DNA of 64,000 bases from a virus, in the IMG/VR virus record IMGVR_UViG_3300045988_103228, positions 1-64,000 of that record. One strand, 5' to 3'. How positions within the stretch are numbered: position 1 is the first letter of the stretch; each line of letters opens with the position of its first letter. A program made the position numbers and the translations under genes. The notes beneath the pieces are model-generated. The model had not been told where the DNA came from and made no database searches. It was given only the letters and a program-made list of their open reading frames with translations. Of the stretch, positions 20,460 through 60,778 are shown piece by piece.

Positions 20460-20480
20460 GTATCCTGTGTTACTTAGCTA
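20460..20480 (+). repeat. Conserved intergenic 21-nt motif, copy 1
   Basis: gtatcctgtgttacttagcta, ending 4 nt from the ligase RBS AAAGGAGG. Confidence 0.7.
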
Positions 20481-20484
20481 TATC

Positions 20485-20518
20485 TAATAAAGAAAGGCTT
20501 GTCGTTATGAGCAAGCCG
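20485..20518 (-). terminator. Rho-independent terminator-like hairpin downstream of the helicase gene
   Basis: Stem ggcttg/caagcc with a T-run on the minus strand (tttctttatt). Confidence 0.45.
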
Positions 20519-20528
20519 TCTTTTTATT

Positions 20529-20549
20529 GTATCCTGTGTCACGTAGCTA
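20529..20549 (+). repeat. Conserved intergenic 21-nt motif, copy 2
   Basis: gtatcctgtgtcacgtagcta. With copy 3 it forms an inverted pair (~20-bp stem). Confidence 0.7.
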
Positions 20550-20587
20550 TAGGGAAAATTTTAAGCCTCTGGGATAGAGACTTCTTA

Positions 20588-20608
20588 TAGCTACATTATA
20601 CAGGATAC
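20588..20608 (-). repeat. Conserved intergenic 21-nt motif, copy 3 (inverted)
   Basis: tagctacattatacaggatac is the reverse complement of the motif. Confidence 0.7.
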
Positions 20609-20619
20609 CATTTGTTTTG

Positions 20620-22950
20620 TCAATGCTTTTCTGAAAATTCTTTCCGTAAAAATTCCTTCAGGAACGTCTGCTTATATGGCACTCTCGAAGTCTTTACAGC
20701 CCGATCAAGAGCATGAGTTTCGGCGCAAATTACGCAATACTTCTTGGCACGAGTAATGGCCGTATAGAGCCATTCTCTCGTCAACATCAGATACGCAGAG
20801 TTGTCCATGCCAACAATCACATACGGAGCCTCACTGCCCTGCAGTTTATGACAACTCAGAGCATAAGCAAGTTCAAGCGTTGCCCAGATGTTATTCCCAC
20901 CAAAGTAATGTGGAATGAAGATCGTTCCCCACTGGTCAAAATCAACCAGAATAAAACTACTCTCAATCTTTCGGATAATGCCACGGTTCCCGTTGAACAC
21001 AGGGCACTTCTTTTCCTTTTTCTTTGTCTTGAGATTGTATGTGTGAAGCTCATAGTTGTTCTTGTTGATAATGACCTGATCGCCCTCACGCAGAGTATAC
21101 GCTCTATCCTTGCCATCACCATAGATTGTGACCTTTGCTTCTGCTTGACCACGACTCGGATTCACAATTTCCTGAATAGCATTATTGACTTCATAGGTGC
21201 AGATACTGCCACGCAGCTTCTGTGGAAGTACAATCTGAATCTTCGCACTATCATTCCCTACCTTATTATATAAGGTACGATATTGATTGATGATGTGGTT
21301 GAATGACTCACTTGCGTCCTTATAGATATCCAACTCCAAATCACGAAGTTCACCACGAATCTCACTACCAGCCCAGCCATAAGGCACCAACTGCGTAGCG
21401 TTACGAACCTTAATGCTCTCCGTGATAATTGCAGACTTGGCTGCCTGACGATGGATCTTAGTCAAACGAGCCACAGGAACAACCTTAGATGCAAGCATAT
21501 CCTTGAAAATATTACACATACCGATGCTCTCAAGCTGTCCGTCATCACCAATCATGATGAATCGCTTTCCGGTCTCGATAGCTTGAATCAAGTCATAGAA
21601 CAACTGAGCTCCGACCATAGAGGTCTCATCCAGAATGATAATGTCTTCTTCAAGAGGATTGTCCTTGTCATGGATGAAACCACCATTCTCAATATCATAA
21701 CCAAGAAGACGATGAATGGTCTTACCGTCCTGACCAGTAATCTCCTGCATACGAGCTGCGGCACGACCAGAAAGCGCAGTCTGAGCGAAAGACTTACCAC
21801 GAAGAACCTTTAGAACACCAGCGACAACGGTACTTTTACCAGTTCCGCCGTAGCCTGTTAAGATACAGACGTTGCTAGAGCATACCTTTTTAATAGCATC
21901 TCTCTGCTCTTCTGTATACTCGATGCCAAGTGCATCTTCTGCCTCATTAATTGCTACATCCATGTTTCGACCAATCGGCTCAATAGGTGCATCCGCCAGT
22001 CGCTTGATCTCTTTTGCAATTTCATCTTCAAGATTCCACACTCTAGTTAAAGCAAATTCCTGACGGTCATCACTCCACCAAAGTGTTTTACGGACATCAT
22101 GCAGATGGAAAAGTGCCATTTTGATGACTTCTTGGTCACCCTCGTTCAAATCAAGTTCCTTAATACAGCTATTGATTGTCTGGTTTGCCGGGATAATAGA
22201 GTTACCTTCTTCGGCACGGGCGGCAAGAAAATGCATGACATAAGCTTCGATTCTGAATTGCGAATTGTGCTTTAAGCCCATATTCAAAGCAAGAGCGTCA
22301 GCTTTTTTCCAGCCGATGCCATACGCATCATCGATCAGAACATAAGGATTCTCTTCAATCTTTCTCACTAGAGTGTCTGCACCATGATATTGACGGACAA
22401 GCTTTTCAATAGCACTAGAAGTCAAGCCATACTCAATCAGCTTTGTATATGCTTCACTGTTATCAATGTTGTTTTCATAGGCATCAATGATTTTCTTGGC
22501 TCGACCTTCCGTAATACCACTAACAGTACAAAGAGACTTGATATCACCATTCTTGATAATCTCATACGGATTGTCGAATGCTTCATAGAGCATCTCAAAC
22601 TGATGGTCGGTCAAGATAAAACGGAGAAAGCTTTTTTGTTCTTCCGGGTCAGTAATCTCTTGAAACTCATTCATGTAGATAATTTTATACTGATCACCGA
22701 ACTTTTCATGATGAACGTACTCACCACAGAACGAATAAGTTTTATTCATATCGAGACTAGGAACGTTTCCTTTTAGCCGGAGGTCGCTGTATCGGCTCAT
22801 GATAGGATTTCCCTGCTTGACTTTTACCACCTCGGCAGAGAAAGTGGCAAAGCCGCCGGGCTCCACCTCCCTCCCATCTTTCGGATAAAAGACTCGTTTT
22901 ATCCTGATGTAACAACGGATCATATTTTCATTAAATTTCTTATCTGCCAC
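20620..22950 (-). CDS. RecD-like SF1 DNA helicase (AAA_30/UvrD_C_2 type)
   Basis: 776 aa. Walker A GYGGTGKST, Walker B IILDETSMV, C-terminal HKLQGSEAPYVIVGMD. Confidence 0.75.
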   Translation of the reverse strand: MADKKFNENMIRCYIRIKRVFYPKDGREVEPGGFATFSAEVVKVKQGNPIMSRYSDLRLKGNVPSLDMNKTYSFCGEYVHHEKFGDQYKIIYMNEFQEITDPEEQKSFLRFILTDHQFEMLYEAFDNPYEIIKNGDIKSLCTVSGITEGRAKKIIDAYENNIDNSEAYTKLIEYGLTSSAIEKLVRQYHGADTLVRKIEENPYVLIDDAYGIGWKKADALALNMGLKHNSQFRIEAYVMHFLAARAEEGNSIIPANQTINSCIKELDLNEGDQEVIKMALFHLHDVRKTLWWSDDRQEFALTRVWNLEDEIAKEIKRLADAPIEPIGRNMDVAINEAEDALGIEYTEEQRDAIKKVCSSNVCILTGYGGTGKSTVVAGVLKVLRGKSFAQTALSGRAAARMQEITGQDGKTIHRLLGYDIENGGFIHDKDNPLEEDIIILDETSMVGAQLFYDLIQAIETGKRFIMIGDDGQLESIGMCNIFKDMLASKVVPVARLTKIHRQAAKSAIITESIKVRNATQLVPYGWAGSEIRGELRDLELDIYKDASESFNHIINQYRTLYNKVGNDSAKIQIVLPQKLRGSICTYEVNNAIQEIVNPSRGQAEAKVTIYGDGKDRAYTLREGDQVIINKNNYELHTYNLKTKKKEKKCPVFNGNRGIIRKIESSFILVDFDQWGTIFIPHYFGGNNIWATLELAYALSCHKLQGSEAPYVIVGMDNSAYLMLTREWLYTAITRAKKYCVICAETHALDRAVKTSRVPYKQTFLKEFLRKEFSEKH

Positions 22951-22962
22951 CTTACAACCCTC

Positions 22963-26178: not shown

Positions 26179-26180
26179 CC

Positions 26181-33795: not shown

Positions 33796-33818
33796 GTATC
33801 CTGTGTCACTTAGCTAAG
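33796..33818 (+). repeat. Conserved intergenic 21-nt motif, copy 4
   Basis: gtatcctgtgtcacttagctaag. Contains the perfect palindrome CTTAGCTAAG. Confidence 0.7.
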
Positions 33819-33826: not shown

Positions 33827-34930
33827 TTACACTCCCCAGTCATCCTCTTCCTCGTTTACAGGAGTTGCAGTAGACTTGTTAGAACCACCCCACCAAGAAG
33901 TGTCGTTCTCAGCAGCCTTACCGTCAAAGTCCTTCTTGGCCTGAGCATTGGCGGCAATTTTTGCCCGTGCCTCAGAGATATTGTCCTCAGTGTAAGTGGA
34001 CTCCGCATCCTTATCACCAGGATTCGGATCAAAGGAATCAGGGTTAACACCCTCAATATACAGCTTGCGAACCGCCGGAGTGCTCTGGCGCTTCATCTTG
34101 TTGGGGCCACCCCAGATATTCTCGGTCTCAACTTCCTCAACCTTCTGCTGATTAACGATAGGGCCAAAGCACTCAAAACTGGTATAGGGCTTCAGACGCT
34201 TACGAATAGAGTCTGCCAGAACCTTATTCTGAGTATTTGCCTTGTAATCAATGAAGAACTCCGCATCCTCAATGGTGCTGTAGTTCACGATCTTTGCATC
34301 GACAACTACCTCATCGCCCTCATCACTCTTGCGGCAACCAGTGTAAACAATGGTCTGAGTAAACAGAGCCAGCTCCTCGAAACCCTCTGCATCGAAGTCA
34401 ATTTCCTTAGAACTCAGAGACACCTGAGTAGGAACAAAACGAATCTGGTGCTTATCATTGTAAGTGCTGTACTCGATGTTACCACGAACATACACATTAT
34501 CGCCATCATGCAGGTTCTCAGAAATCTCCTTAGCTGCATCGAAATCGGTCAGAGTCTTGTTATCATTGATAACCTTACCGGACTCATTCGTCTTCTTGGT
34601 AACACCGACCTTAACGCCAATCATGTCATAACCTTCCGGTGCAACATAGGTCATGCGATCCTTCCAAGCGACTTCCTTCTTGTCCTTCTCAATGCCCTTG
34701 TCCTTATCGGCACGGCGGAAGAAGTAAACCTTATCACGAGGCATACCAGCCAGATCAACATAGAAAGTATTTTCGTTGGAAGTCTGAACGCCAAAGCTCA
34801 GGACACGGCGCATAGCACCACTCTTGGTCTCCTTCTCGTTATAGAAGTTGCTACGCTGGGTGCCGGTGACCTTACCAGCCATCTCAAAAGAACCACGGGT
34901 CTGAGGAAGATTAAAAATTCTATCTGCCAT
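33827..34930 (-). CDS. Putative ssDNA-binding protein (phage SSB-like, acidic tail)
   Basis: 367 aa. Directly upstream of the AAA_24 gene (the usual Sak4-SSB pairing). Acidic C-terminus EEEDDWGV. Family not confirmed. Confidence 0.35.
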   Translation of the reverse strand: MADRIFNLPQTRGSFEMAGKVTGTQRSNFYNEKETKSGAMRRVLSFGVQTSNENTFYVDLAGMPRDKVYFFRRADKDKGIEKDKKEVAWKDRMTYVAPEGYDMIGVKVGVTKKTNESGKVINDNKTLTDFDAAKEISENLHDGDNVYVRGNIEYSTYNDKHQIRFVPTQVSLSSKEIDFDAEGFEELALFTQTIVYTGCRKSDEGDEVVVDAKIVNYSTIEDAEFFIDYKANTQNKVLADSIRKRLKPYTSFECFGPIVNQQKVEEVETENIWGGPNKMKRQSTPAVRKLYIEGVNPDSFDPNPGDKDAESTYTEDNISEARAKIAANAQAKKDFDGKAAENDTSWWGGSNKSTATPVNEEEDDWGV

Positions 34931-35814: not shown

Positions 35815-36360
35815 TTATGAGATTTTTTTATCGAGTTTCCGTAACTCTAACTTACTTGGAAGAAAATTTCTACAGAAGTACGCACTTCCAAACGACACTC
35901 CCTCAACAGGGCTGTCAGTATGTTCAGGGTCCATAAATCCGATTCGAGAATCAAAACACAGCATCTGTACATCATTTTTGAAGATGTCAAATCGTGTCTT
36001 ACCCTGAATACTATTTGCAGGAAGTAGTAGAGCAAACGGCTTTTCAAGCTCATAGGCTCTACGCAATACTTCATCCTTCCTACTAAAAGGAGGATTTGAA
36101 ATCATAACATCCCAACGCTCTGGTTCATATGTAAAGAAATCTTGCCCGTTATCAATGTGGCTACATTCTACCTTGTACCCAGCATCTCTGAATACCTTCA
36201 CAAAGGAAGACCATTCTTTATCAAACGGACACCAAATCACAGCTTTACTCGACGGGGGGGTGAACTCAAGCAGTGGAACAACCGCATAAACCGGTGTATA
36301 TCGCTCATCACCTGATACAGATCGGTCAGCTGTAAGATATCCTTTGTTTTCTGGCATCAA
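35815..36360 (-). CDS. Putative DNA N6-adenine methyltransferase (NPPF motif)
   Basis: 181 aa. Catalytic motif IV ISNPPFS. Confidence 0.5.
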   Translation of the reverse strand: MMPENKGYLTADRSVSGDERYTPVYAVVPLLEFTPPSSKAVIWCPFDKEWSSFVKVFRDAGYKVECSHIDNGQDFFTYEPERWDVMISNPPFSRKDEVLRRAYELEKPFALLLPANSIQGKTRFDIFKNDVQMLCFDSRIGFMDPEHTDSPVEGVSFGSAYFCRNFLPSKLELRKLDKKIS

Positions 36361-36989
36361 TTCACCTCATTTTCAATGTACTCTGAAAATTGTTCTGCGA
36401 TAGCACGAGCAATCCCATGGAAGGTCTTAGCTCTATTCTTTGCATCCTCACCACGTTTAGCTGCGCCACGATTTCTTACATTGCCTTTATTGGCCGAAGT
36501 TCCACAAGGGCAATACGGACCCTTCGGTTCAACCGCTTCAACCGGAACCAGATTAGGAAGACCTTTCAGCCATAAACAGGTCTTCTTTGTCCATGGATGG
36601 TCCTTACCATAAAATTCATATGGCTGAATCATCTGCGATGGTTTTGGCATTTCATAAACAGCACTCGGAATTGGATTCTCAACACAAATGTGTTTGATCG
36701 GTGCGTTGTAAAACGCCATAAAGAATTCCTTAGCTTCTAATCCCTGTTGATACCGTTCTTGATTCAATTTGTGCCCAGCCCACAACCATCGTGCGCCAGC
36801 GTTTGATAAATATGTACACGGAGGATGTGCAATCAATAGATCCCACTGCTTAACATAGTGTTGTGTGCCGTCCATTGTGACTATCTGCCCACCCTGTAAA
36901 GCTGCCAGTGCATTACCCAAAATATGCCACTCTGGGTGACCACCGGACGGAGGTTGAATATCACAAGAATACGCTTCATGACCAAGCAA
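36357..36989 (-). CDS. DNA C5-cytosine methyltransferase (short; degenerate motif I)
   Basis: Motif IV HPPCTYLS (PC catalytic Cys), motif VI ICVENP (ENV), C-terminal motif X-like FHGIARAIAEQF. The called start is a TTG with no RBS. The in-frame upstream extension ...SYIIQDTKGGVVILRVLIACEESQE covers a degenerate motif I region and has no ATG/GTG. Confidence 0.55.
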   Translation of the reverse strand: MLGHEAYSCDIQPPSGGHPEWHILGNALAALQGGQIVTMDGTQHYVKQWDLLIAHPPCTYLSNAGARWLWAGHKLNQERYQQGLEAKEFFMAFYNAPIKHICVENPIPSAVYEMPKPSQMIQPYEFYGKDHPWTKKTCLWLKGLPNLVPVEAVEPKGPYCPCGTSANKGNVRNRGAAKRGEDAKNRAKTFHGIARAIAEQFSEYIENEVN

Positions 36990-37062
36990 TCGAAATGCTT
37001 TACAAACTTCCTGTGATTCCTCACAGGCAATTAGAACTCGTAAGATTACAACCCCTCCTTTT

Positions 37063-37083
37063 GTATCCTGTATTATATAGCTA
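37063..37083 (+). repeat. Conserved intergenic 21-nt motif, copy 5
   Basis: gtatcctgtattatatagcta. On the gene strand it is followed directly by AAAAGGAGGGG. Confidence 0.7.
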
Positions 37084-37189
37084 AAACTTTAAAAATGAGC
37101 AAAAAATAATAGACGTATTAACGTCATATTATTCATTCGCTTATAAAACAAAAGTTCTAGCGGGGTTTATGTATGCCCTTTCAGGCTGG

Positions 37190-37263
37190 TGGGACAGGAG
37201 AGATTTGAACTCCCGACCAAGCGGTTATGAGCCGCCAGCTCTGACCAACTGAGCTACTATCCC
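37190..37263 (-). tRNA. tRNA-Met(CAT): tRNA-Met/fMet (anticodon CAT)
   Basis: Hand-folded GGGATAG/CTGTCCC acceptor, D-arm GCTCAGTTGGTCAGAGC, anticodon loop CTCATAA, T-arm GGGAGTTCAAATCTCTC, CCA encoded. Confidence 0.7.
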
Positions 37264-37292
37264 ATGCAAACGCCGACTTTCATCGGCGTGAT

Positions 37293-37360
37293 GCCAGTGA
37301 AGGAATCGAACCTTATCTCTCGGTGTTTCCGAGCGCTTTTACCATTAAGCTATCCAGCCG
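37293..37360 (-). ncRNA. Degenerate tRNA-like element (possible pseudo-tRNA)
   Basis: Canonical D-arm TAGCTTAATGGTAAAAGC and T-arm AAGGTTCGATTCCTT. The anticodon arm CTCGG-AAACA-CCGAG has only a 5-nt loop, and the 5' and 3' acceptor strands do not pair. Confidence 0.3.
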
Positions 37361-37493
37361 TATACCTCAGAATTTAATTCTCACTATCCAAGCTATGTCG
37401 CGTTCCAATATGATCACTCTTGACAACCATGTCGTAACATATAGGTTTCTTTCGGCTCTGAGTAACCGGTGCAGCGTAAGGGGCTGCGTGTGG

Positions 37494-37566
37494 AGCGACT
37501 GACGGGGTATGATCCCGCAACATTCAGATTGGAAATCTGACGCTCTGCCAATTGAACTACAGTCGC
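37494..37566 (-). tRNA. tRNA-Gly(TCC): tRNA-Gly (anticodon TCC)
   Basis: Acceptor GCGACTG/CAGTCGC, anticodon arm TCAGA-TTTCCAA-TCTGA, unusual T-loop ATCATAC, CCA encoded. Confidence 0.6.
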
Positions 37567-37675
37567 ATAATCACCCAGCTTGCAAAGCACTACTGCACCA
37601 TCACTGGCGAGCTGGGAATAATAGTGGTAATCAAAGGAGATCAACAAACGGTACGCAACCATAAGTTGATAATGG

Positions 37676-37761
37676 TGGACACGACCCGATTTGAACGGGC
37701 ACACCGCTGTTAACGGCAAAAGAGCCTAAATCTTTCATGTCTGCGATTCCATCACGTGTCC
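37676..37761 (-). tRNA. tRNA-Leu(TAG): tRNA-Leu (anticodon TAG), class II
   Basis: Acceptor GGACACG/CGTGTCC, anticodon arm AAAGA-TTTAGGC-TCTTT, long variable arm, T-arm GCCCGTTCAAATCGGGT, CCA encoded. Confidence 0.6.
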
Positions 37762-37766
37762 ATAAA

Positions 37767-37856
37767 TTGAGGGTGTCGGGATCGAACCGACGATCGGCTA
37801 TAAAGCACGCTGTCTGGGTCAAAGCCAGATGCCATTTACCACTTGGTGAACCCTCA
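37767..37856 (-). tRNA. tRNA with anticodon TTG (nominally Gln) but a class-II-like 21-nt variable region; identity uncertain
   Basis: Perfect 7-bp acceptor TGAGGGT/ACCCTCA. Anticodon arm TCTGG-CTTTGAC-CCAGA. T-arm GTCGGTTCGATCCCGAC. Discriminator A, no encoded CCA. Confidence 0.45.
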
Positions 37857-37955
37857 TTATGTAACTTGGCTTGCTGCGTCCTACTGCTCCGTTTTTTTGG
37901 AGAGCCAAGAATAATAGGAAGGTATTCATGAAAAGCAAGTGGAATACTCCACTGG

Positions 37956-38026
37956 TCCAAAATGTCGAATTCGAATCGCTCTTCTGCGTCCCAAACGCAG
38001 CGTGCTGCCATTACACTACATTTTGG
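37956..38026 (-). tRNA. tRNA-Pro(TGG): tRNA-Pro (anticodon TGG)
   Basis: Anticodon arm CTGCG-TTTGGGA-CGCAG. 8-bp complementarity at the termini CCAAAATG/CATTTTGG. Weak T-stem around TTCGAAT. CCA encoded. Confidence 0.5.
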
Positions 38027-38032
38027 ATATGG

Positions 38033-38117
38033 TGCCGCAGGTGGGATTCAAACCCACGATCCGTGTTTCAGGCGTCCCGGTTTAAGCGGGAAATGTATGT
38101 CACTCCATCACTGCGGC
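38033..38117 (-). tRNA. tRNA-Leu(TAA): tRNA-Leu (anticodon TAA), class II
   Basis: Acceptor GCCGCAG/CTGCGGC, anticodon arm TCCCG-CTTAAAC-CGGGA, T-arm GTGGGTTTGAATCCCAC, CCA encoded. Confidence 0.65.
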
Positions 38118-39255: not shown

Positions 39256-41466
39256 TTATTCGTGCCGATTCTCATAGAATTCATTCCGTAACTGAATAAT
39301 ACCCTTCTTGCAAAAAGATTCCTGGTCTTTCTCTCGTTGCTCACGCATCCAACCATAGAACAGGTTATCCTCAGCAGTAAACAACTTTGCGGTATTTTCA
39401 TAATAGCCACGCTTTTGAACGCTCTGCATAACACTACGCAAAAACTTCCAGTGTTTGTAGTAAGGAAGCTTCAGCTTGAACATAAAGTTCGTGCTATCCA
39501 GAAGGACAAACCCTTCAATATGTTCAAAGCCATGATGCAGATAGTTCTCGTTCATGACTCCCTCGTACCAAGGATAGAATTCACTCCAGCTCTCAAAGAT
39601 TTTAACCTTCTCCTTAATCTGCAAATGACACTTTTCAGCAGCACGCTTCAGATCATCGTAATCCATCACACTGAAGTTCATATCATTCGCAACAATATCC
39701 AGCAAAACAATGTGCGGTTTCTTGTATTCGATGATATGAGCATCATTTACAGGATCAATCACCTCAAAAATGATGGAACCATTCTCTTTTGCAACTTCCT
39801 TCAGATTCTTACGGTCTTCATCAGAAGTCGTATCCATGAGAATCTTTCGGAACATATCTGCAAAAGGCCCTTCAGGAGTGGATTTACTTGCAATGAACAG
39901 ACCATCCTGTTCTGCATCATACGAGACAATGCCAAGAAATCCGTTTTCCTTCAGATATGCAGTCACCGGGAACTTCAAAGTGTTCTGTAGGTTTCCAATT
40001 CTCGTTTCATTCCGCTCATCGACCGCAAAGAACTTATCATAGCTTCGAGCTACAATCTTATTCGTCTTTGTGTTAATGAACAATCCCCTTGCTTTGGTAG
40101 AAACCTCATCCCAGTGCTTCTTATAAAATGCTTCACGAGAGAAGTTGAAAGAAGAAATATCTCCGAATCGCTTCTCAAACACATATTTGCTTTGACGCAT
40201 CTTACTGACAAGTTCTGCGTTATCGAACTCAGTTTTCATTTCAACGGTAGTTTCAGTCTTTGACTCCTCTTTTCGGAACACATCATTCTTTGTTTCTACA
40301 CATTTGATTGACTGACCGTGTTCAAGTTCCACGCAACGGAGATATCCACCAAACTCGATTTTTCCTTCGAGGTTGTAGCACCGATGCCCCATATCAATAG
40401 GAACATCCTGCACATTTCGATGACCGAATATCTGAATGTAGCTATCCGGCATCGATTTTTCCCAAGACTCAGCCACGGTTAGCATATCAGGATAGCGACC
40501 AACACCCTTTACCATCTGGTCAGTAGACACGAATGGTAGAAATTCAGGCAAATAACTCAAACCACCATGGCTAACGAAGTATCTTTTCTCGTCGTAATCA
40601 AAATAGGAGCACTGTCCTACTCTCGAATAAACCTTACGAGCCGTATTATGGTCAATCCCTGCTTTGAAAAGCTGCGGACGAGTGTAGTTTGCGAACTCCT
40701 CGCTCTGAACCGGTTCATCATGGCCCCACTTGTTCAGCCACCGTTCGTGATTTCCTTCAAGGAGAATTACATTCTTCCGATTATTGTCTACAACATCACA
40801 AAGGAACTTGAACATCTCTACATTCTCAATACCGCGATCCAGATAATCACCAACAAAAATGTACAGTTCATCATCCTTCAGGTCACCAAGGTACTCTTTC
40901 AAGCAACTGTAACATCCATGTACATCACCGATGATATGAATTTTGTTCCAGTTGTTAAAGTCCTGCGGAACATAGTTCAATTTCTCAAGGACATTTATAT
41001 CTGACGAAAGTACAGTCACACCAGACGGAATCTTCTGTGTAGCAAATCGCGCATACATCTTATCAATAGCAGCATCTGGAACTCGCTTCAGAGGAGCACG
41101 AAGCGCATTACGCCGTTTACACTCATCAATCGGCAAATCAGTCATGTCGATGATGTACATTCTGTATCTGTACTGCTTTGCAAGATTCTTATAGCGATTG
41201 ATTTCAACAGTTTTAGAGTTCGTTGCATCAATCACGGTAAATTCACCGTGAGACATCCGAACCTCCAACAGTTTAAAGAGCATATCCCAGACAACATCAT
41301 CGTTCTGGGGAGAGATTTCCATTGTGCCAGCCGGGGTTTCCTGACCACCCTGACACATAAGGCGAATCGTATCGGCACTAAGCGTATACTTTTCCAGATC
41401 ATGCTCTTTAATATAGGTGGACTTCCCGCATCCTGGTGCTCCACGGAAAAGAAGCAAAGTTCTCAT
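39256..41466 (-). CDS. Polynucleotide kinase-phosphatase-ligase (bacterial Pnkp-like RNA repair enzyme)
   Basis: 736 aa with three domains. N-terminal P-loop kinase GAPGCGKST. Central calcineurin-like phosphatase GDVHG, GDYLDRG, GNHE. C-terminal ~350-aa nucleotidyltransferase/ligase-like domain with STKARGLFIN. Confidence 0.7.
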   Translation of the reverse strand: MRTLLLFRGAPGCGKSTYIKEHDLEKYTLSADTIRLMCQGGQETPAGTMEISPQNDDVVWDMLFKLLEVRMSHGEFTVIDATNSKTVEINRYKNLAKQYRYRMYIIDMTDLPIDECKRRNALRAPLKRVPDAAIDKMYARFATQKIPSGVTVLSSDINVLEKLNYVPQDFNNWNKIHIIGDVHGCYSCLKEYLGDLKDDELYIFVGDYLDRGIENVEMFKFLCDVVDNNRKNVILLEGNHERWLNKWGHDEPVQSEEFANYTRPQLFKAGIDHNTARKVYSRVGQCSYFDYDEKRYFVSHGGLSYLPEFLPFVSTDQMVKGVGRYPDMLTVAESWEKSMPDSYIQIFGHRNVQDVPIDMGHRCYNLEGKIEFGGYLRCVELEHGQSIKCVETKNDVFRKEESKTETTVEMKTEFDNAELVSKMRQSKYVFEKRFGDISSFNFSREAFYKKHWDEVSTKARGLFINTKTNKIVARSYDKFFAVDERNETRIGNLQNTLKFPVTAYLKENGFLGIVSYDAEQDGLFIASKSTPEGPFADMFRKILMDTTSDEDRKNLKEVAKENGSIIFEVIDPVNDAHIIEYKKPHIVLLDIVANDMNFSVMDYDDLKRAAEKCHLQIKEKVKIFESWSEFYPWYEGVMNENYLHHGFEHIEGFVLLDSTNFMFKLKLPYYKHWKFLRSVMQSVQKRGYYENTAKLFTAEDNLFYGWMREQREKDQESFCKKGIIQLRNEFYENRHE

Positions 41467-41544: not shown

Positions 41545-41565
41545 GTATCCTGTGTCATATAGTTA
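41545..41565 (+). repeat. Conserved intergenic 21-nt motif, copy 6
   Basis: gtatcctgtgtcatatagtta, ~75 nt upstream of the Pnkp RBS. Confidence 0.65.
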
Positions 41566-41577: not shown

Positions 41578-41600
41578 CAAGGGGCCGAAGCCCCCTGTTT
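41578..41600 (-). terminator. Rho-independent terminator after the integrase-like gene
   Basis: ggggccgaagcccc stem with T-runs on both strands (bidirectional shape). Confidence 0.55.
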
Positions 41601-42527
41601 TTAATTTTTGTGGAAGTATTCGACCCAGCCCTTGTATCCCTGCCGGAAACTAATGTAAGCTACCTTGCTACACTTTCTTCCAATAATGTCTGCAAGAGGT
41701 TTTTTACCATTTCCGAAACTAAGCTCCGCAAGGTTGAACTCTGAATTACTCTTACAGTAATCGTAGACCTTCACATACTCACCATTTCTGGTCAGATGTC
41801 TTCGATCTAAAATCTTTGTATGATGTCTTTTTTCGAGAATGTCATTCAGCCTCACAAAATAACTATGGATTGTATTTACAGACATCTTCGGGTCGCTGTC
41901 TACACCAGTTCTATCCTCTGTTTTACGAAGAATGTAATCACCATTTATGACATAAAATGTTCTGTATCCTCCCATATTGGGCGCATCATACTGTTTCATT
42001 TCATAACACTGCTTGATGATATCCATCAACCTTGCGTCAACATCAGTCCTATCGAGGACAGTACGAGATTCAAAGTCTACATCGTTAATTGTTAGATTAG
42101 AAACCTCACTAGAAGTAAGACCGATCCAGTACAAAACAGCAATCACATTCATACGAATCTGATACGCTTCTTCATACTTGTTTAAGAAACCAACAAACTC
42201 ATCAACCGATGCAAAATACTTATCCTCGTACATATTGTCTGAACTCACATCGCTCTCTGAGAATTCAGCCAAATCATACATGCTTGTACGATTTTCGTTC
42301 TTGATATAACCAGTGATTATCGATTTCACATTTCTGAATGAACGACTTGAGTTTACCCAATTGTATTTGGCAAACATCTTTACAAAATCATCTTTTGTGA
42401 AGTCGAATAGCTCATACCCGCACTCCGCTTCGTAGTCCATAACATGGTTAAGTGTCGATATAACAAACTCGCCGCTTCTATCAGAATACTTTTCAGCAAA
42501 AGCGTTGATCTTTTCTTCAGTAAGCAT
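41601..42527 (-). CDS. Hypothetical protein with divergent tyrosine-recombinase-like features
   Basis: 308 aa. IAVLYWIGLTSSEVSNLTINDVDFESRTV resembles the integrase box I region. HSYFVRL and a C-terminal VAYISFRQGY are weak matches to box II and the catalytic Tyr. Confidence 0.3.
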   Translation of the reverse strand: MLTEEKINAFAEKYSDRSGEFVISTLNHVMDYEAECGYELFDFTKDDFVKMFAKYNWVNSSRSFRNVKSIITGYIKNENRTSMYDLAEFSESDVSSDNMYEDKYFASVDEFVGFLNKYEEAYQIRMNVIAVLYWIGLTSSEVSNLTINDVDFESRTVLDRTDVDARLMDIIKQCYEMKQYDAPNMGGYRTFYVINGDYILRKTEDRTGVDSDPKMSVNTIHSYFVRLNDILEKRHHTKILDRRHLTRNGEYVKVYDYCKSNSEFNLAELSFGNGKKPLADIIGRKCSKVAYISFRQGYKGWVEYFHKN

Positions 42528-42580: not shown

Positions 42581-43000
42581 TCAAGCAAATGCGGCAAAAT
42601 TCTGAAATTCCATAGTATGTTGTACGCCGCTCACGAACGCCGAGATCAAAAACGGTTCATCCTTGCATCTGGCCATTGCGATCATATTCATATGACGCTC
42701 AGACAAGACACCAAGCTTTTTGATAAACTGCCCTTTGTTAAGTGTGTCAGTCTCTTCACAGAGAACGATACTGTCAACCTCTAGGAAATCGCAATCTTCC
42801 TTTGAGAGCAGGACATGAACCGGAGAACGCTTGTATGTTCTGGAAGACAACGGATTCCCTTTGATTGTGGGACTGAAGAAGTTGCGCTTATTGTTACTCG
42901 TCACAACGAACGGTCGAATACCGCGCTGCTGATGACCTGTCGCATTGGATAGATCAACCAACCAAACCTCTCCGACCTTTGGGTCAATATTGTTGTCCAT
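42581..43000 (-). CDS. MazF/PemK-family endoribonuclease toxin-like protein
   Basis: 139 aa. GEVWLVDLSNATGHQQRGIRPFVVTS aligns to the MazF N-terminal motif (GDIVWVDFDPTVGHEQAGKRPAVVLS). Further similarity across the MazF fold. No MazE-like partner adjacent. Confidence 0.6.
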   Translation of the reverse strand: MDNNIDPKVGEVWLVDLSNATGHQQRGIRPFVVTSNNKRNFFSPTIKGNPLSSRTYKRSPVHVLLSKEDCDFLEVDSIVLCEETDTLNKGQFIKKLGVLSERHMNMIAMARCKDEPFLISAFVSGVQHTMEFQNFAAFA

Positions 43001-43036: not shown

Positions 43037-43057
43037 TAGCTATATTATACAGGATAC
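43037..43057 (-). repeat. Conserved intergenic 21-nt motif, copy 7 (inverted)
   Basis: tagctatattatacaggatac, just upstream of the mazF-like RBS. Confidence 0.65.
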
Positions 43058-43091
43058 CTTTACAGAAGTCAATAGGTTTTCGAAAATATTT

Positions 43092-43418
43092 TTAGTGCCC
43101 GTACAACTCTGGATTCTCTGATACGAACACGCTGGTGTTATCGAAGATCATCTCATACGCTTTCTCTTTATCGCCCGGCCTAAACTCAACCCTCCTTACT
43201 TCGTAGCATTCTTGCCGCAGCTCAACATGACTTTCGTTTCCAAAAAATCCAATGCCTTTGACAATCCCATGTGTCTCTACACCAATATCGTTCATCTTCT
43301 TGCAGATCATGTGAACATCCACACCATTACAAATAAAGCAGACCCACACTCGCTTTTTTCTTATGTACTTCAAAAAGTTTTCAACCTGTATAATTTCCAA
43401 AACCTTTTTCTCACTCAT
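43092..43418 (-). CDS. Hypothetical protein
   Basis: 108-aa ORF. Confidence 0.45.
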   Translation of the reverse strand: MSEKKVLEIIQVENFLKYIRKKRVWVCFICNGVDVHMICKKMNDIGVETHGIVKGIGFFGNESHVELRQECYEVRRVEFRPGDKEKAYEMIFDNTSVFVSENPELYGH

Positions 43419-43456: not shown

Positions 43457-43509
43457 ATATATTATACACATCTTTTTGTTTTCGTCAATATATTACACAT
43501 CTTTTTGTT
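43457..43509. repeat. Direct repeat pair ATATATTA(T)ACACATCTTTTTGTT (2 copies, ~30 bp apart) upstream of 43092..43418
   Basis: Copy 1 at 43457-43480 and copy 2 at 43488-43509, read directly. Confidence 0.5.
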
Positions 43510-43541
43510 GTATTATTTATCGAAATTTTAGATGATGCCAT

Positions 43542-47574: not shown

Positions 47575-48282
47575 TCAAACCTCCATTCGTGCTGTTTCTA
47601 GCTCTCTTTTAACTAGTGAACGACGTTTCGTCGCATTTTTTAACCAATCATTCCCACTAGGAGCTTGTCTATCAACTCTCGTGTTGCGGCCACTCCCTAT
47701 CGGACATGCCCGGCGGTAATCATCAGCAGTCTTACAACCAAGTGATTCAGCTTCGTCCAGTGCTTTTCGCACATAAGCCCATGTACTACCACCTAGATCA
47801 GAACACTTTCCAATCACAGCAAGTACAAGTTCATCGCCCATGCGCTCAACATATTCTGCTAAAGCTTTCCGCCCAGTAGCGCCAAGCTTTCCGATATTCT
47901 CTCGAAAAACATCCTCAATAGGTTTCGTCGTTGTCGTCGTTTCATCACAAGACGAAGACGATATCTTATCTTTTTCTTTCTCTTTTTCTTTCTCTAGCTT
48001 GGCTTTGCTTGCGTTTGCTTCGTTTTGCTTGCGCTTGCTTTCACCGCCAGCCTTTCCAGAAATGCGCTTACCTTCGATGTATTCGGCATCTTTAATTAAA
48101 TCTCTCTTGATAGCAGGCCACACATACCGCTCATTTCCGTTGAGCTCAGGCTCCGTTCCAGACGATTTGTATTTCATCATCGCCAGTACCAGACGCCCCA
48201 CCTCAGCAGCACTAAGGGGTTCGAAGTAGCTATCATAAGTATCCCAGATTTTAATATAAGTATCAGCCATAACACACCTCAA
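47575..48282 (-). CDS. Hypothetical protein with a KE-rich low-complexity linker
   Basis: 235 aa. 4-nt overlap with the upstream integrase (operon). Confidence 0.45.
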   Translation of the reverse strand: MRCVMADTYIKIWDTYDSYFEPLSAAEVGRLVLAMMKYKSSGTEPELNGNERYVWPAIKRDLIKDAEYIEGKRISGKAGGESKRKQNEANASKAKLEKEKEKEKDKISSSSCDETTTTTKPIEDVFRENIGKLGATGRKALAEYVERMGDELVLAVIGKCSDLGGSTWAYVRKALDEAESLGCKTADDYRRACPIGSGRNTRVDRQAPSGNDWLKNATKRRSLVKRELETARMEV

Positions 48283-49148
48283 GAGTTTTCATGGCAGTCC
48301 ACGCCATAATCAATCCCAGAGTAGTATTCATCATCCACTTCTTCATCCAGACCAATATAGCGAAGCGTAATTGCCTGGCTACTATGATTAAGACTATGCT
48401 GTAACCAAGCTAAGGCTTTTACATCATTTGGATGAGATGCAATAAACTGATATCCGAAGGTTTTACGACAACTATGAGAACCAAGCTGGACGGGAAGATT
48501 TAATTCCTTACCGACTTGACGCATAATCCTACCAAAAGAATCCACATCAAGCGGATCTCTCGTCTCTTTTGGATTAGCATCATACTTACGGAACACATCA
48601 GACTTGCTTACGCTCGTTCCACCGTTTGTTCTCATAGAGCTTTTCCAACTACCTTGCCGAGACGGGAAAAGCCAATCGTCATAAGACAATTCATCAATAT
48701 TGATATAAGTTTGAATACACTTTAGTGCCGGGGCCGGAACTTTAAGAATGCGATACTTATTTGTTTTCTTTTCCTTAACACGAAGTTTTGCGTTGAAATT
48801 CACCACAACCTTTCCATTCATATCTGTAGCTGCTACATCAGAAACCTTCAAACGAAGCAAATCACTTGCTCTGAATCCTGTGCAACATCCTACATTAAAC
48901 AAGCACCAGTTGCGGTACTGACGTTTAATCCAGAAATATTCTGAAATACGTTTGATATCCTCTTTGTCTTTAATTGGCTGAACTGACCCATGATTTGCTT
49001 CCATACGAGTCAGGCTATAGTTCTTTTTAACTACTTTCTGACGTTTTTCTTTGTTAGAAGAATCATAGTCAGAAAAATCAAGAGCAACAGTATTTTCGAT
49101 TTTCTTTTCGTTTTCAAGCGCACTCATCACATTCACCTCAAATTCCAT
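48279..49148 (-). CDS. Tyrosine-type site-specific recombinase/integrase (second copy in window)
   Basis: 289 aa. Box I TGFRASDLLRLKVSDV. Box II HSCRKTFGY...LQHSLNHSSQAITLRYI (R..HxxR..Y). Confidence 0.75.
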   Translation of the reverse strand: MEFEVNVMSALENEKKIENTVALDFSDYDSSNKEKRQKVVKKNYSLTRMEANHGSVQPIKDKEDIKRISEYFWIKRQYRNWCLFNVGCCTGFRASDLLRLKVSDVAATDMNGKVVVNFNAKLRVKEKKTNKYRILKVPAPALKCIQTYINIDELSYDDWLFPSRQGSWKSSMRTNGGTSVSKSDVFRKYDANPKETRDPLDVDSFGRIMRQVGKELNLPVQLGSHSCRKTFGYQFIASHPNDVKALAWLQHSLNHSSQAITLRYIGLDEEVDDEYYSGIDYGVDCHENS

Positions 49149-56490: not shown

Positions 56491-56492
56491 AA

Positions 56493-56729: not shown

Positions 56730-56731
56730 AG

Positions 56732-57793: not shown

Positions 57794-57807
57794 AGTGTAA
57801 TCTCCTT

Positions 57808-58239
57808 TTACATCATTTCGTAATAGTTATTGTAATATTTGAAAGATTTATCTGTTCTTTTATCTTCGTTGCATACAATCTTTAACGGAACCCACTTCAA
57901 AACAGTTGGTTTTCTTCTGTACACTTCACGTAAAGATAAGGTTCTACAAACATCAATGCGATCAAAATACCATTGATTGTCTTGATAGCTGTAATAACAT
58001 GAAAGGTCAACATACGTTCCGTATTCTGTACCATCACTCATAAAAACAATACACGGAACGGAAAGATATTTTGATTCTCCTAAAATCCCAAAATCAAGTT
58101 TTGGTGGAAGTTCGCTTTCTGCATCATGAATATATTTCGTTGGAATCATAGAAAATTGTCTTTCTACTCTTTCGACGATATCCAAATAGTATGGATCGGA
58201 AAATAACGGACGATTCTTTTTATACTGTTCAAATGTCAT
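57808..58239 (-). CDS. Hypothetical protein
   Basis: 143-aa ORF. Confidence 0.45.
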   Translation of the reverse strand: MTFEQYKKNRPLFSDPYYLDIVERVERQFSMIPTKYIHDAESELPPKLDFGILGESKYLSVPCIVFMSDGTEYGTYVDLSCYYSYQDNQWYFDRIDVCRTLSLREVYRRKPTVLKWVPLKIVCNEDKRTDKSFKYYNNYYEMM

Positions 58240-58251
58240 AATGTAACCTCC

Positions 58252-58473
58252 TTAGTCATTGTAAAAGTCATTAAGAAATTCTAAACGACACTCTTGTTCT
58301 TCCTCCTCTAACAGATCATAATATCGGTCCAAATAATCCTGTTCGTAATCTCTGATTTCTTCTTCGAGTTTTTGCTTTTCTTCTTCGAGTCTTTGTTTTT
58401 CTTCAAAGAAAGCATCTATTCCTTCTTCGATAGGATTATCTCTTAATGGTTTCATTAGAATCTCCCTAGTCAT
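58252..58473 (-). CDS. Hypothetical acidic coiled-coil protein
   Basis: 73 aa, E-rich. Confidence 0.35.
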   Translation of the reverse strand: MTREILMKPLRDNPIEEGIDAFFEEKQRLEEEKQKLEEEIRDYEQDYLDRYYDLLEEEEQECRLEFLNDFYND

Positions 58474-58492
58474 TGTAAAAGCATGATTTTAG

Positions 58493-58699
58493 TTAATCCA
58501 TATCTTCAAACTCACAGTTCTCTTCATCTAACACGTCACTATCAGGAACCCATTCAAGACCTTCAGGAATAGGAACATCGGAAAGATGTTCTTTTGCATA
58601 TTTAATAGCTTCATCAATATCCATATTATCGGGGACATCAATAAAGCTATTGTAAACCGCCATACAGTTCACAGTTATATCCAATCTTTTCATAAACAA
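58493..58699 (-). CDS. Hypothetical acidic protein
   Basis: 68-aa ORF. Confidence 0.35.
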   Translation of the reverse strand: MFMKRLDITVNCMAVYNSFIDVPDNMDIDEAIKYAKEHLSDVPIPEGLEWVPDSDVLDEENCEFEDMD

Positions 58700-58715
58700 A
58701 CACTCCTTTTAATAT

Positions 58716-58973
58716 TTAGATATTCCAAGCATCACAAAGATCTTTAGGCTTATCATTCGGCATCCATACTTTTACGTTATCATTAAGGAAGTAACAGCAA
58801 CCAAAAAATCCCATAGGAGAATCACAAAGATTCTGTTCACCATCTTTAACACCAACTTGATAAACAACATAGATAAACTCAGCAAGTTCATGCTTGTCCA
58901 TTCGCTTGATGCGGTCGTACATTGTTTCCATATCAATCGCTCCTTTTCTTTTTATATTTTTATGCTTTTGCAT
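58716..58973 (-). CDS. Hypothetical protein
   Basis: 85-aa ORF. Confidence 0.4.
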   Translation of the reverse strand: MQKHKNIKRKGAIDMETMYDRIKRMDKHELAEFIYVVYQVGVKDGEQNLCDSPMGFFGCCYFLNDNVKVWMPNDKPKDLCDAWNI

Positions 58974-59025
58974 TGGTAGCGGTTATGTCTGCCCTAGTAC
59001 CGCTAATCACCTAGCATTTGTTCGT

Positions 59026-59265
59026 TCACACTACCCAGACCTGACTTCTTATGTAACTTTCAATGTCTGCCGGGTAACCATTGCGCCGGATATACTGACA
59101 CAGAACACGCTGCACATCTCTGTTGTCGCCATAATCCATAGCGATTGAAATATCTTCACCGTGAGTACCTACACCCAGACGCTCATAATCTCTGATATCG
59201 TTGTAAAATTCGTGAGCGTTGTAAGGATAGCCATTCCGGCGATCAAGAATTGAATCAATAATCAT
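59026..59265 (-). CDS. Hypothetical protein
   Basis: 79-aa ORF. Confidence 0.4.
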   Translation of the reverse strand: MIIDSILDRRNGYPYNAHEFYNDIRDYERLGVGTHGEDISIAMDYGDNRDVQRVLCQYIRRNGYPADIESYIRSQVWVV

Positions 59266-59296
59266 CTTTTCACCTCATTACAACAACAACTTATAA

Positions 59297-60019
59297 TCAC
59301 ACCCACGCAGGCTTGACAGGTGTGTCAGGCAGTGCAAACAGCCAGTCGATCACTTCCTGCGGAACTTCTTCTGTCTGCCATGCGTGGCCATACTGGTAGC
59401 CGCAGACCGGGCAGGGCTTGCCAAGGATGCCATCGGGGCAGAGCCAGCCGAGGGTCTTCGTTTCGGTCGCGCCGGTCATTCCGGGATAGAGCGATTTCTG
59501 CGGCTCATAGTACAGAGCTGCATCACCAGAGATTTCGTGCGGTAGGGTGATGCTGTACGGCAGTTTGGCAACCTTAATCTGGTCATCGCTAAGAGCTGCG
59601 GTCATGCCATCGCAGAGCATCTTCCACGAGCTTTTCTTCATGGATTCCTGCCGCCGGAGGGTTTTGCTGTTCAGCCGATAGTGGTACAGGGTGACAGGCG
59701 TGACGGCCAGCTTGTCCCAGCCAAGCTCCTTCTGGTGCTTGCAGTACGGACGCATATCGTTCAAATGCCACTCGTCCCAGATGGAGCAGAACTTGTCGAG
59801 CATTTCCTGCGTCCACTCATCGCAGGGGCGGCCTTCGCGGATTTCATCAACGCACTGGCCAGCACCGCCACGGCAGTTTCCGCTCGGCATAGGGCCGATA
59901 ACGCCGGTGATGCTGAGTCTGCCATTCTCAAAGCAGATTTCGCAGAACGCCCGCGCGGTAACTTCATTGCCGCTGCGGGTGTAGACCTTACAGAAACACG
60001 GACTGACGACCTTTTTCAT
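59297..60019 (-). CDS. Hypothetical Cys-rich protein encoded by a GC-rich (~60% GC) island; probable recent horizontal acquisition
   Basis: 240-aa ORF. Its base composition is visibly different from the ~38% GC flanks, and the GC richness spawns multiple overlapping artefact ORFs on the plus strand. Cys motifs SPCFC...CEIC and CPVCG. Confidence 0.55.
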   Translation of the reverse strand: MKKVVSPCFCKVYTRSGNEVTARAFCEICFENGRLSITGVIGPMPSGNCRGGAGQCVDEIREGRPCDEWTQEMLDKFCSIWDEWHLNDMRPYCKHQKELGWDKLAVTPVTLYHYRLNSKTLRRQESMKKSSWKMLCDGMTAALSDDQIKVAKLPYSITLPHEISGDAALYYEPQKSLYPGMTGATETKTLGWLCPDGILGKPCPVCGYQYGHAWQTEEVPQEVIDWLFALPDTPVKPAWV

Positions 60020-60027
60020 ATCATTCT

Positions 60028-60048
60028 CTCTCCTTTTGTATCCTATAT
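60028..60048 (+). repeat. Conserved intergenic 21-nt motif, copy 8 (variant CCTAT)
   Basis: gtatcctatattatgtagtta, directly upstream of the GC-rich gene's RBS. Confidence 0.6.
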
Positions 60049-60089
60049 TATGTAGTTATGTAGCAAAAATTTTGATGTATCGGCGTGTC

Positions 60090-60350
60090 TTAAACTCTTC
60101 CTGCTATCTCACACCAGTATGGGTCGTATTGAAAAGCGCAGTCATACATCACGCTTCCTGTAACCTGATCCACGAATTTGGGGCAGTGCCAATCCATTGT
60201 GTATTTGTTTTCATTACACCATTCAGAAATAATTTTTGTGGTCAAAGGTGTAACGTAAACATACAAATCACTATTATGGTGATCCATATCCTCTTTTGGA
60301 TAACCAGCATCCATCAAACGCTGCATCAAACTCTTACTCATACAAATCAC
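60090..60350 (-). CDS. Hypothetical protein
   Basis: 86-aa ORF. Confidence 0.4.
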   Translation of the reverse strand: MICMSKSLMQRLMDAGYPKEDMDHHNSDLYVYVTPLTTKIISEWCNENKYTMDWHCPKFVDQVTGSVMYDCAFQYDPYWCEIAGRV

Positions 60351-60676
60351 TCCTCACGAGAAACATCATTTTCAAAGTAATATAATTCCATGTCCGCAGC
60401 TACAGTGAAACGACACTGAACATCAAACACACGATTGAATTCAATTCCGGCACTGCCAAACTTCTTGTGATACCTCTTTGCTTCTTCCGTTGCAATCTGG
60501 AAATAATAATCAATTGCTTTTTCTTTGTCGTACTTCCCCGCCTTGTACTTCTTTTTCAGCTTGTCAATAAATGGGAAAATCATCTGACGATACAAATCGC
60601 CGTCATTGATGGTAGTGATATAGAGATCTTCACTTTCGTAAGTCTCACGATAAACCATAGATTTTGTGCGTTTCAT
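60347..60676 (-). CDS. Hypothetical protein
   Basis: 109-aa ORF. Confidence 0.45.
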   Translation of the reverse strand: MKRTKSMVYRETYESEDLYITTINDGDLYRQMIFPFIDKLKKKYKAGKYDKEKAIDYYFQIATEEAKRYHKKFGSAGIEFNRVFDVQCRFTVAADMELYYFENDVSREE

Positions 60677-60697
60677 GTTTGATTCTCCTTTTCTTTC

Positions 60698-60718
60698 GTA
60701 TCCTGTATTATATAGCTG
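60698..60718 (+). repeat. Conserved intergenic 21-nt motif, copy 9
   Basis: gtatcctgtattatatagctg. With copy 10 it forms a ~21-bp inverted repeat around a 39-nt loop. Confidence 0.7.
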
Positions 60719-60757
60719 AACGGTAAAAATAAAAGTCCTCTAACGGACTGCCTTTCT

Positions 60758-60778
60758 TAGCTACATAATACAGGATAC
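60758..60778 (-). repeat. Conserved intergenic 21-nt motif, copy 10 (inverted)
   Basis: tagctacataatacaggatac. Confidence 0.7.

Follow-up and report, generated by a model that had tools for sequence, protein, structure and literature searches.

The stretch analyzed here (the window, 64,000 nt; positions 1 to 64,000 of the IMG/VR virus record IMGVR_UViG_3300045988_103228) belongs, by its gene content, to a large SPbeta-like temperate phage, and every one of its genes lies on the minus strand. Between these genes a non-palindromic 21-bp sequence recurs ten times, and one of the copies sits in the promoter of an operon of just two genes, which code for a PemK/MazF-like toxin (42581–43000, minus strand) and a 308-residue integrase-fold protein (41601–42527, minus strand). 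We predict that this 21-bp box, GTATCCTG-TRTWATR-TAGCTA, is the operator of a master lysogeny repressor and that the repressor is the SroF-like product of the open reading frame (ORF) at 41601–42527, a reading that we consider likely from the sequence evidence presented below and from analogy with the MrpR/SroF repressors of Bacillus phages.

Ten copies of a 21-bp intergenic box

The flank pattern GTATCCTG-N7-TAGCTA occurs exactly ten times in the window. A query with GTATCCTGTGTCAYTTAGCTA allowing up to three mismatches recovers eight of these copies (0 matches in 100 shuffles), and the conserved-flank query adds those at 60698 and 60038–60058. With a position weight matrix (PWM) built from 177 distinct family instances (window plus related contigs), the ten sites score 24.7–36.7 bits against a shuffle maximum of 17.6, and the list is complete because no other position of the window exceeds 8 bits. 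Across the family instances the information content is high over the 21 bp and nil outside them, the flanks GTATCCTG and TAGCTA being nearly invariant around a 7-nt core with the consensus TRTTATR. Not a single base of any copy falls within a greedy set of minus-strand ORFs covering 89.7% of the window, in agreement with the initial annotation, which had called all copies intergenic. Its list of ten copies was also right in nine positions; the tenth, given as 60028, is a 10-nt slip for the true copy at 60038–60058. The motif scan that it had suggested as a check, run here over the window and related contigs, returned the ten intergenic copies together with family copies in many contigs. Rfam covariance models gave no match at the motif copies, and only six tRNAs of the window reached the gathering score.

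Read in the sense of the genes, the copies fall into two classes. The three type A copies (60758, 43037 and 20588) have the form GGTATCCTG-TATAAT/TATTAT-RTAGCTA, in which the hexamer is preceded by TTGACA or TTGACT at exactly 17 nt; the promoters so formed are the best sigma-70-type matches of their regions, with 11–12 of the 12 consensus positions. The copy at 60758–60778 (minus strand; gene-sense GTATCCTGTATTATGTAGCTA) holds in its core the −10 box TATTAT (60765–60770), 17 nt downstream of a −35 box TTGACA (60788–60793, minus; 11/12). The copy at 43037–43057 (minus) lies in the promoter of the pemK-like/sroF-like operon, with a −10 TATAAT at 43044–43049 and a −35 TTGACT at 43067–43072 (minus; 11/12). 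The copy at 20588–20608 (minus) belongs to a promoter downstream of the exonuclease V gene, whose −10 TATAAT (20595–20600) and −35 TTGACA (20618–20623, minus) make a 12/12 match, the −35 box overlapping the stop codon of ORF 20620–22950. The mixed orientation of the copies had been held to speak against a sigma-70 promoter; this argument falls away, as the three copies recorded as inverted are those in gene sense, inside TTGACA/T-17-TATAAT/TATTAT promoters.

The seven type B copies (60698, 60038, 41545, 37063, 33796, 20529 and 20460; all on the plus strand) are, without exception, inverted relative to transcription and read TAGCTA-N7-CAGGATAC in gene sense. All seven lie upstream of the ribosome-binding site (RBS) of the next gene at 4 to ~75 nt, four of them ending 4–9 nt from it, and five of the seven come after a terminator-like or 5′ hairpin with a T-run. 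The RBS distances given initially hold approximately (4, ~25 and ~73 nt as measured here). The copy at 60698–60718, whose start is 60 nt away from that of its type A partner, leaves ~9 nt to the RBS of ORF 60347–60676, and the solitary, most degenerate copy at 60038–60058 (24.7 bits) stands 4 nt before the RBS of ORF 59297–60019. At 41545–41565, the box lies directly past the terminator of the repressor operon, a hairpin GGGGGCttcgGCCCC with a T-run (41580–41596, minus) 3′ of the repressor gene. The top-scoring copy (37063–37083; 36.7 bits) comes after a tRNA array and a hairpin (37112–37125) and ends 4 nt before the RBS of a methyltransferase-like ORF. The initial annotation saw this copy as if inserted at the 5′ end of the methyltransferase frame, but nothing suggests an insertion: in relatives the box occupies the homologous position and the genes start with ATG or GTG at the RBS. 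The copy at 33796–33816 separates ORF 33827–34930 from the Sak4-like gene that heads the replication module, a position analogous to that of the SPBRE at yorE of SPbeta. Finally, 20529–20549 forms an inverted pair with 20588, their starts 59 nt apart, and 20460–20480 stands 4 nt before the RBS of an ATP-dependent DNA ligase gene (19114–20445), a terminator-like hairpin GGCTTG...CAAGCC with a T-run (20496–20517, minus) lying between the two. As sigma-A promoters in their own right the type B copies were rejected: no acceptable −35 box is present at 16–18 nt, the best candidate being a weak TTGCTC-17-TATAAT at 37063.

Two of the loci are cassettes, in which a type A promoter is followed by a small hairpin and then by a type B box 59–60 nt downstream. 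These are the inverted pairs 20529/20588 and 60698/60758, which the initial annotation had recognized and which are real: their arms are 38–39 nt apart and, if present on one RNA, would fold with −35 and −38 kcal/mol. The small hairpin between the arms is AGTCTCTatcccAGAGGCT (20564–20582, minus) in one cassette and AGTCCgttagaGGACT followed by a T-run (60734–60749, minus) in the other; the latter is conserved in relatives and would serve the transcript of the promoter P60793 as a 5′ stem-loop or a weak terminator.

Two further features adjoin these promoters. The sequence GCACTAAAA(A)T is found just upstream of the −35 box in two of the type A promoters (60795–60835 and 43075–43100, minus), and at 60795–60835 it makes up a 9-bp inverted repeat, CACTAAAAT...ATTTTAGTG, directly next to the −35 box.

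The box in related phages

The flank pattern is present in many IMG/VR contigs of ~120–140 kb, often repeated and often as inverted pairs, so that the box is a conserved feature of a family of ~130-kb gut phages. Our count over related loci is 273 instances, of which 55 have a −35 box in register. All 53 close pairs (53/53) have their TAGCTA ends facing inward at 59–61 nt start to start, and the differences between the arms of a pair are not compensatory. In 50 distinct promoter cassettes of relatives, the nine spacer bases nearest the −35 box vary freely and the next eight (GTATCCTG) are fixed, which is notable because RNA polymerase has no sequence requirement there. Part of this spacer conservation is built in, since the cassettes were ascertained by the motif; the pattern is equal in 80 loci that were retrieved via the neighboring PemK protein and not via the motif. 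In relatives, the small inter-arm hairpin corresponding to that at 20564–20582 has changed from AGTCTCT/AGAGGCT to AGTCTCC/GGAGGCT, a compensatory T-A to C-G exchange that makes a genuine 5′ stem-loop or weak terminator probable.

In relatives of the copies at 60698, 41545 and 33796, the sequence upstream of the box is conserved and the downstream genes differ, with at least four different first genes following the early cassette; mosaic recombination joints thus coincide with the boxes. A further arrangement is found in a genome region of relatives beyond the window (L001 664–743, with equivalents in L004, L017, L021, L024 and L034), where two inverted boxes surround a complete sigma-A promoter, TTGAAT-17-TATAAT, and the RBS of a leftward gene lies on the other side. 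A single arm is transcribed from the enclosed promoter, and the layout suggests a doubly guarded divergent control region. Outside this family, a scan of GTDB genomes with the DNA motif gave only single matches in unrelated taxa, which is the chance level for 14 specified bases in 596 Gb.

An integrase-fold candidate repressor

The product of ORF 41601–42527 is, by profile comparison and structure modeling, a distant homolog of MrpR/YopR/SroF with an integrase-like fold. A full-library HMMER search returned sparse relatives that are 23–37% identical, and the precomputed annotations of its many metagenomic homologs read MrpR_C_cat. A profile of 24 repressor-family sequences (A2) matches YopR/MrpR of the PDB over the full length (E = 4e-11), hhalign aligns A2 to SPbeta YopR with a probability of 96.8% (E = 2.9e-10), and 18 of the 24 members match Pfam MrpR_N_CB. 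A first structural model from a shallow alignment, with a predicted local distance difference test score (pLDDT) of 60 and weak fold matches only, was replaced by an A2-based AlphaFold model with a pLDDT of 88. With the latter, the top seven PDB hits in Foldseek are SroF/YopR/MrpR entries (E 6e-8 to 1e-6), including DNA-bound Phi3T SroF at a template modeling (TM) score of 0.63, and true tyrosine recombinases appear only at E ≥ 1e-3. Identity to the SPbeta-family proteins is low (~14–17% in structural alignments, 17% in hhalign). The position of the first catalytic arginine (Arg-I) is taken by Thr138 (GLTSSE here vs. GLRISE in Tn1549 Int), which is invariant in the close family, and an H244-x-x-R247 motif and Y298 are conserved, as far as the catalytic positions can be read from the sequence alignment.

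Members of this repressor family are carried by hundreds of human-gut metagenome contigs, a single protein variant by >400 of them; as the contigs reach up to 784 kb, the family members occur as prophages. Pattern scans of GTDB species-representative genomes derived from the repressor alignment found no relatives, and scans of viral contigs for distant homologs (P0080 and P0083) gave no match.

The operon consists of the pemK-like and sroF-like genes only, the ORF downstream coding for a 736-residue Pnkp-like protein. The box at 43037 in its promoter, P43072, implies that a repressor binding it would regulate its own operon. The toxin gene at 42581–43000 is co-transcribed with the repressor gene, without an evident antitoxin gene. 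The repressor operon of SPbeta begins with yopM, which acts via the host MazE/MazF system (PMC10516654), and a functional parallel between yopM and the PemK/MazF-like gene is possible by analogy.

Box and repressor allele change together

Three ENA contigs (L245, L246 and L247) are syntenic with 35–52 kb of the window. Their PemK/MazF-like toxin is 91% identical to that of the window and the repressor encoded immediately downstream only 37%, and in the DNA identity profile pemK stands out as a conserved island, with divergence on both sides, in the promoter region and in the repressor gene. At both homologous sites, ~1.5 kb apart, these contigs carry boxes of the sequence RRATTCTGTWTACTAYWCTWM, i.e., of a different type, RRATTCTGTWTACTA.... 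In the operon promoter the register is the same (TTGACA, 9 nt, box) and the box reads AAATTCTGTATACTATACTTA or GGATTCTGTATACTATACTTA, and the site past the repressor terminator reads, inverted, AAATTCTGTTTACTATACTAC or ...ACTACTCTTA. Both alternative copies depart from the window box by the same substitutions, at positions 1, 2, 5, 13, 18 and 19. In the sample ascertained via PemK, all 78 loci with a repressor like that of the window (78/78) have the window-type box at the operon promoter, and 77/78 have it past the sroF terminator, the partner box of the remaining locus not being assessable; the three loci with the alternative allele have the alternative box at both sites (3/3). A concerted change of two sites 1.5 kb apart along with the repressor allele is what an operator–repressor pair predicts.

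Next to this operon, a 108-residue ORF without a Pfam match (43092–43418, minus) lies just upstream in the window. In L245, a 105-residue ORF without detectable similarity to it (9116–9433) takes its place beside the 91% identical pemK. The 108-residue product may be an allele-specific partner of the repressor, e.g., an antirepressor, judging from this replacement. A second recurrent element that we suspected in L245, of the form ACGT-loop-ACGT plus A-rich sequence, does not recur in the window.

Proposed mechanism and comparison with SPbeta

By analogy with SroF, one repressor monomer would clamp one long asymmetric box. A type A box covers the −10 hexamer together with the adjoining half of the spacer and the region of the transcription start, and the repressor bound there would keep RNA polymerase out, shutting P60793 (early genes), P43072 (its own pemK-sroF operon) and P20623 (the ligase and the genes downstream of it). 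At the type B boxes, which lie in front of the next RBS, the most likely effect of bound repressor would be to halt polymerases that have read through from upstream; the two cassettes, with their second box 59–61 bp past the promoter box, would be locked twice in this way. That the protein binds the boxes, represses the promoters and acts as a roadblock at the inverted copies is what we infer from the placement of the boxes and from the known system.

MrpR/YopR/SroF is the master repressor of SPbeta-family phages, and chromatin affinity precipitation sequencing (ChAP-seq) found it at ten promoter regions with an SPBRE, that of its own operon included (PMC10516654). In the structure of Phi3T SroF with DNA, one monomer clamps an asymmetric 26-bp box and reads 24 bp of it; the sites are scattered over the genome, and repressors, boxes and antirepressors are phage-specific (bioRxiv 10.1101/2025.11.27.690993). 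Our scan of the SPbeta genome places ACAAATACAAAWAATATGTATA between the −35 TAGACA and the −10 TATAAT of sigma-A promoters at yonP, yorE, yorM, yorZ and yosX, and next to the RBS at yopM, yopV and yonX. The boxes of the window are likewise situated in the spacer and −10 region of sigma-A promoters or adjoining an RBS, and the likeness extends to a homologous repressor with an integrase-like CB+CAT fold, a long asymmetric box (~21–26 bp) in about ten copies across the early and replication regions, one of them at the promoter of the repressor's own operon, the matching of repressor and box as phage-specific alleles, and an SPbeta-like replication module. The box sequence itself is unrelated (GTATCCTGTRTTATRTAGCTA here vs. 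ACAAATACAAAWAATATGTATA), and the host is a human-gut bacterium rather than Bacillus. A LexA box (GAAC-N4-GTTC) is absent near the repressor locus, the three matches in the window all lying far away within coding regions.

Several observations weigh against this identification. The window protein taken alone scores only 21.9 bits with Pfam MrpR_N_CB, below the cut-off of 27. The co-variation of box and repressor is effectively one evolutionary switch between two lineages, hence one event and not a statistic, and L245 has no recognizable box upstream of the methyltransferase, where the window has one. The operon has two genes, the PemK/MazF-like toxin first, instead of the six of sroA-F; a small Sar-like antirepressor gene was not seen one ORF downstream of the repressor, where the Pnkp-like ORF lies; and no AimR-like protein or arbitrium genes were found among the roughly half of the ORFs that were scanned, the window being about half of the genome. 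In SPbeta the boxes are uniform in orientation, whereas seven of the ten here are inverted relative to transcription, for which the MrpR/SroF literature that we read offers no explanation; inverted pairs with a fixed 59–61-bp spacing are a further difference.

The operator reading explains neither the constant spacing of the pairs nor the inversion of all non-promoter boxes. Conceivably, the box has two uses, as a DNA operator and, in read-through RNA, as 21-bp stems processed, e.g., by RNase III, which would couple repression to mRNA processing, the cassette being also a recombination joint for early-gene modules; or two monomers might cooperate across ~60 bp on an inverted pair, which is not known for the monomeric SroF. 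We regard such a dual or cooperative role as unlikely, though not far-fetched. A precedent for the shared orientation and the proposed roadblock is offered by mycobacteriophage L5 and its cluster A relatives, whose stoperators are numerous asymmetric 13-bp sites of the gp71 repressor in short intergenic gaps; one site type overlaps a promoter, and the others have a uniform orientation and presumably stop elongating polymerase. The seven non-promoter copies of the window (7/7) similarly share one orientation. The two systems are not homologous: the L5 repressor is a small helix-turn-helix protein, whereas the candidate here has an integrase fold and a 21-bp site.

The initial annotation had proposed an undescribed kind of element, a view superseded by the same logic being known for SPbeta, in the form of SPBRE and MrpR/SroF (PMC10516654; bioRxiv 10.1101/2025.11.27.690993). 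No new kind of mechanism is thus revealed, and what appears to be new is the lineage, the box sequence and the second specificity pair; the literature that we searched on integrase-fold master repressors (MrpR/SroF) concerns Bacillus SPbeta-family phages only. According to these predictions, a ~130-kb prophage family that abounds in human-gut metagenomes has a distant MrpR/SroF homolog with a 21-bp operator of its own, and also a second pair of matched specificities. They define a testable regulon of three promoters and seven downstream sites; the specificity swap found in nature could serve to study the reading of long asymmetric DNA by a recombinase fold, and efforts to induce or silence abundant gut prophages could start from here.

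Alternative explanations

Among the functions offered initially, the evidence supports a protein-binding site or operator, and a phage-specific promoter, an RNA-processing or terminator element and a selfish element all fare less well. An RNA-level role, in which the inverted pairs form 20–21-bp stems in read-through RNA and act as RNase III sites, terminators or stabilizers, draws on the folding of the pairs (−38 and −35 kcal/mol, z = −8 and −7, if both arms are on one RNA) and on their strict 59–61-nt geometry in 53 pairs. Read-through RNA with both arms is plausible at 20588, there being no terminator between the exonuclease V gene and P20623, whose −35 box overlaps the stop codon. The hairpin potential noticed at the outset is hence a real fold, but one limited to read-through transcripts, and it leaves the six solitary copies of the ten unexplained. 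The promoter-embedded arm is upstream of its own transcription start, and transcripts of that promoter have no unusual fold (z = 0 and −0.75); likewise, the relatives' cassette with a sigma-A promoter between the arms transcribes one arm only. What is conserved, moreover, is the arm sequence itself and not mere complementarity, the differences between arms being uncompensated, and the concerted change in L245 hits two copies 1.5 kb apart, which are unable to form a local hairpin. No Rfam family matches either, and we judge this explanation quite improbable. The type B copies could instead be promoters of a phage-encoded RNA polymerase or sigma factor, given that an RBS follows each of the seven and a terminator-like or 5′ hairpin precedes five of them. 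In gene sense, four window copies have the sequence TAGCTA-AGTGACA-CAGGATAC, similar in our view to the core of the SP6 promoter (...GTGACAC...), and SPbeta-like phages encode the YonO RNA polymerase (an annotated ORF). Yet across the family the GTGACA core is not kept, the consensus there being TRTTATA, type A copies used in this way would transcribe upstream genes in antisense, and the sites precede replication and early-type genes rather than late ones. As we found neither an RNA polymerase nor a sigma factor in the ~50 window ORFs scanned, and it is the repressor allele, rather than any polymerase, with which the box co-varies, we give this idea very little credence.

Two further possibilities invoke rearrangement of the DNA. 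In T4-type phages, promoter early stem-loop (PeSL) cassettes combine an early sigma-70 promoter with a small stem-loop and are repeated in intergenic regions at mosaic gene junctions, as is the promoter/stem-loop cassette here; PeSLs lack the 21-bp box and, to our knowledge, are not operators of a dedicated repressor. Were the box part of such a recombination cassette, or of a selfish, mobile element resembling a miniature inverted-repeat transposable element (MITE), its main role would be the shuffling of gene modules. The promoter-hairpin-box cassette is indeed conserved in front of at least four different genes in relatives, and the sequence downstream of the 41545- and 33796-type boxes also differs between relatives, with junctions that coincide with the boxes. 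Such junctions at regulatory boundaries are, however, expected for any operator or promoter, every copy is in a fixed register to a −35 box or an RBS, and the solitary copies occupy homologous positions (78/78 at the operon promoter and 77/78 past the sroF terminator) and not variable sites. With no transposase associated among the roughly half of the ORFs scanned, mobility as the primary function seems highly unlikely. Lastly, the inverted pairs might be invertons flipped by an integrase-family protein, e.g., the product of ORF 48279–49148: they are 21-bp inverted repeats, one pair in relatives encloses a complete sigma-A promoter, and the window has two Phage_integrase-family genes. The inter-arm segment is only 38–40 bp, which is, as far as we know, far shorter than any recombinase-invertible segment. 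In both window pairs the promoter is not enclosed by the arms but overlaps one of them, and the solitary copies are left unexplained, all of which makes inversion scarcely credible.

Other genes and features of the phage

A near-identity search of phage records gave only three tiny fragment matches and no close cultured relative. The replication genes of the window include those for a Sak4-like annealing protein, a DnaB-like helicase, a primase, a RecJ-like exonuclease, a DnaE-type polymerase, an exonuclease V-like helicase and an ATP-dependent ligase, and the module from the Sak4-like to the DnaE-type gene (Sak4-like, DnaB, primase, RecJ-like, DnaE-type) is collinear with yorG-yorL of SPbeta. 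Nucleotide-metabolism genes are also present, as is a Tn916-type integrase gene at 225–1391. A second Phage_integrase-family protein of 289 residues, 55% identical in L245, is encoded at 48279–49148 (minus) in the early region, where it adjoins a DUF6291 protein; it is distinct from both the integrase at 225–1391 and the candidate repressor.

The tRNA array preceding the box at 37063 comprises six genes (37190–38117, minus) and is overlapped by two listed ORFs, 37414–37719 and 37631–38011, that are probably spurious. Just upstream of it, the Pnkp-like protein (39256–41466, minus) combines kinase, phosphatase and RNA ligase domains, and the pairing of the two suggests a tRNA-repair or counter-defense module. 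The methyltransferase-like frame on the other side of the array (35815–37050, minus) is open from the RBS past the box at 37063 (…VVILRVLIACEESQEV…), with TTG at 36989 as its first canonical start. It is split into two ORFs, 36357–36989 and 35815–36360, where L245 has a single 460-residue DNA_methylase ORF; a non-canonical start, a frameshift or a pseudogene are all possible.

A separate strong promoter, TTGACG-16-TATAAT, lies upstream of the 108-residue ORF 43092–43418. Within 43459–43512, two exact direct repeats of ACAAAAAGATGTGTA (43465–43479 and 43494–43508, minus) bracket its −35 and −10 boxes, which from the sequence looks like the operator of a second regulator, and L245 has a similar arrangement at 8991–9125.

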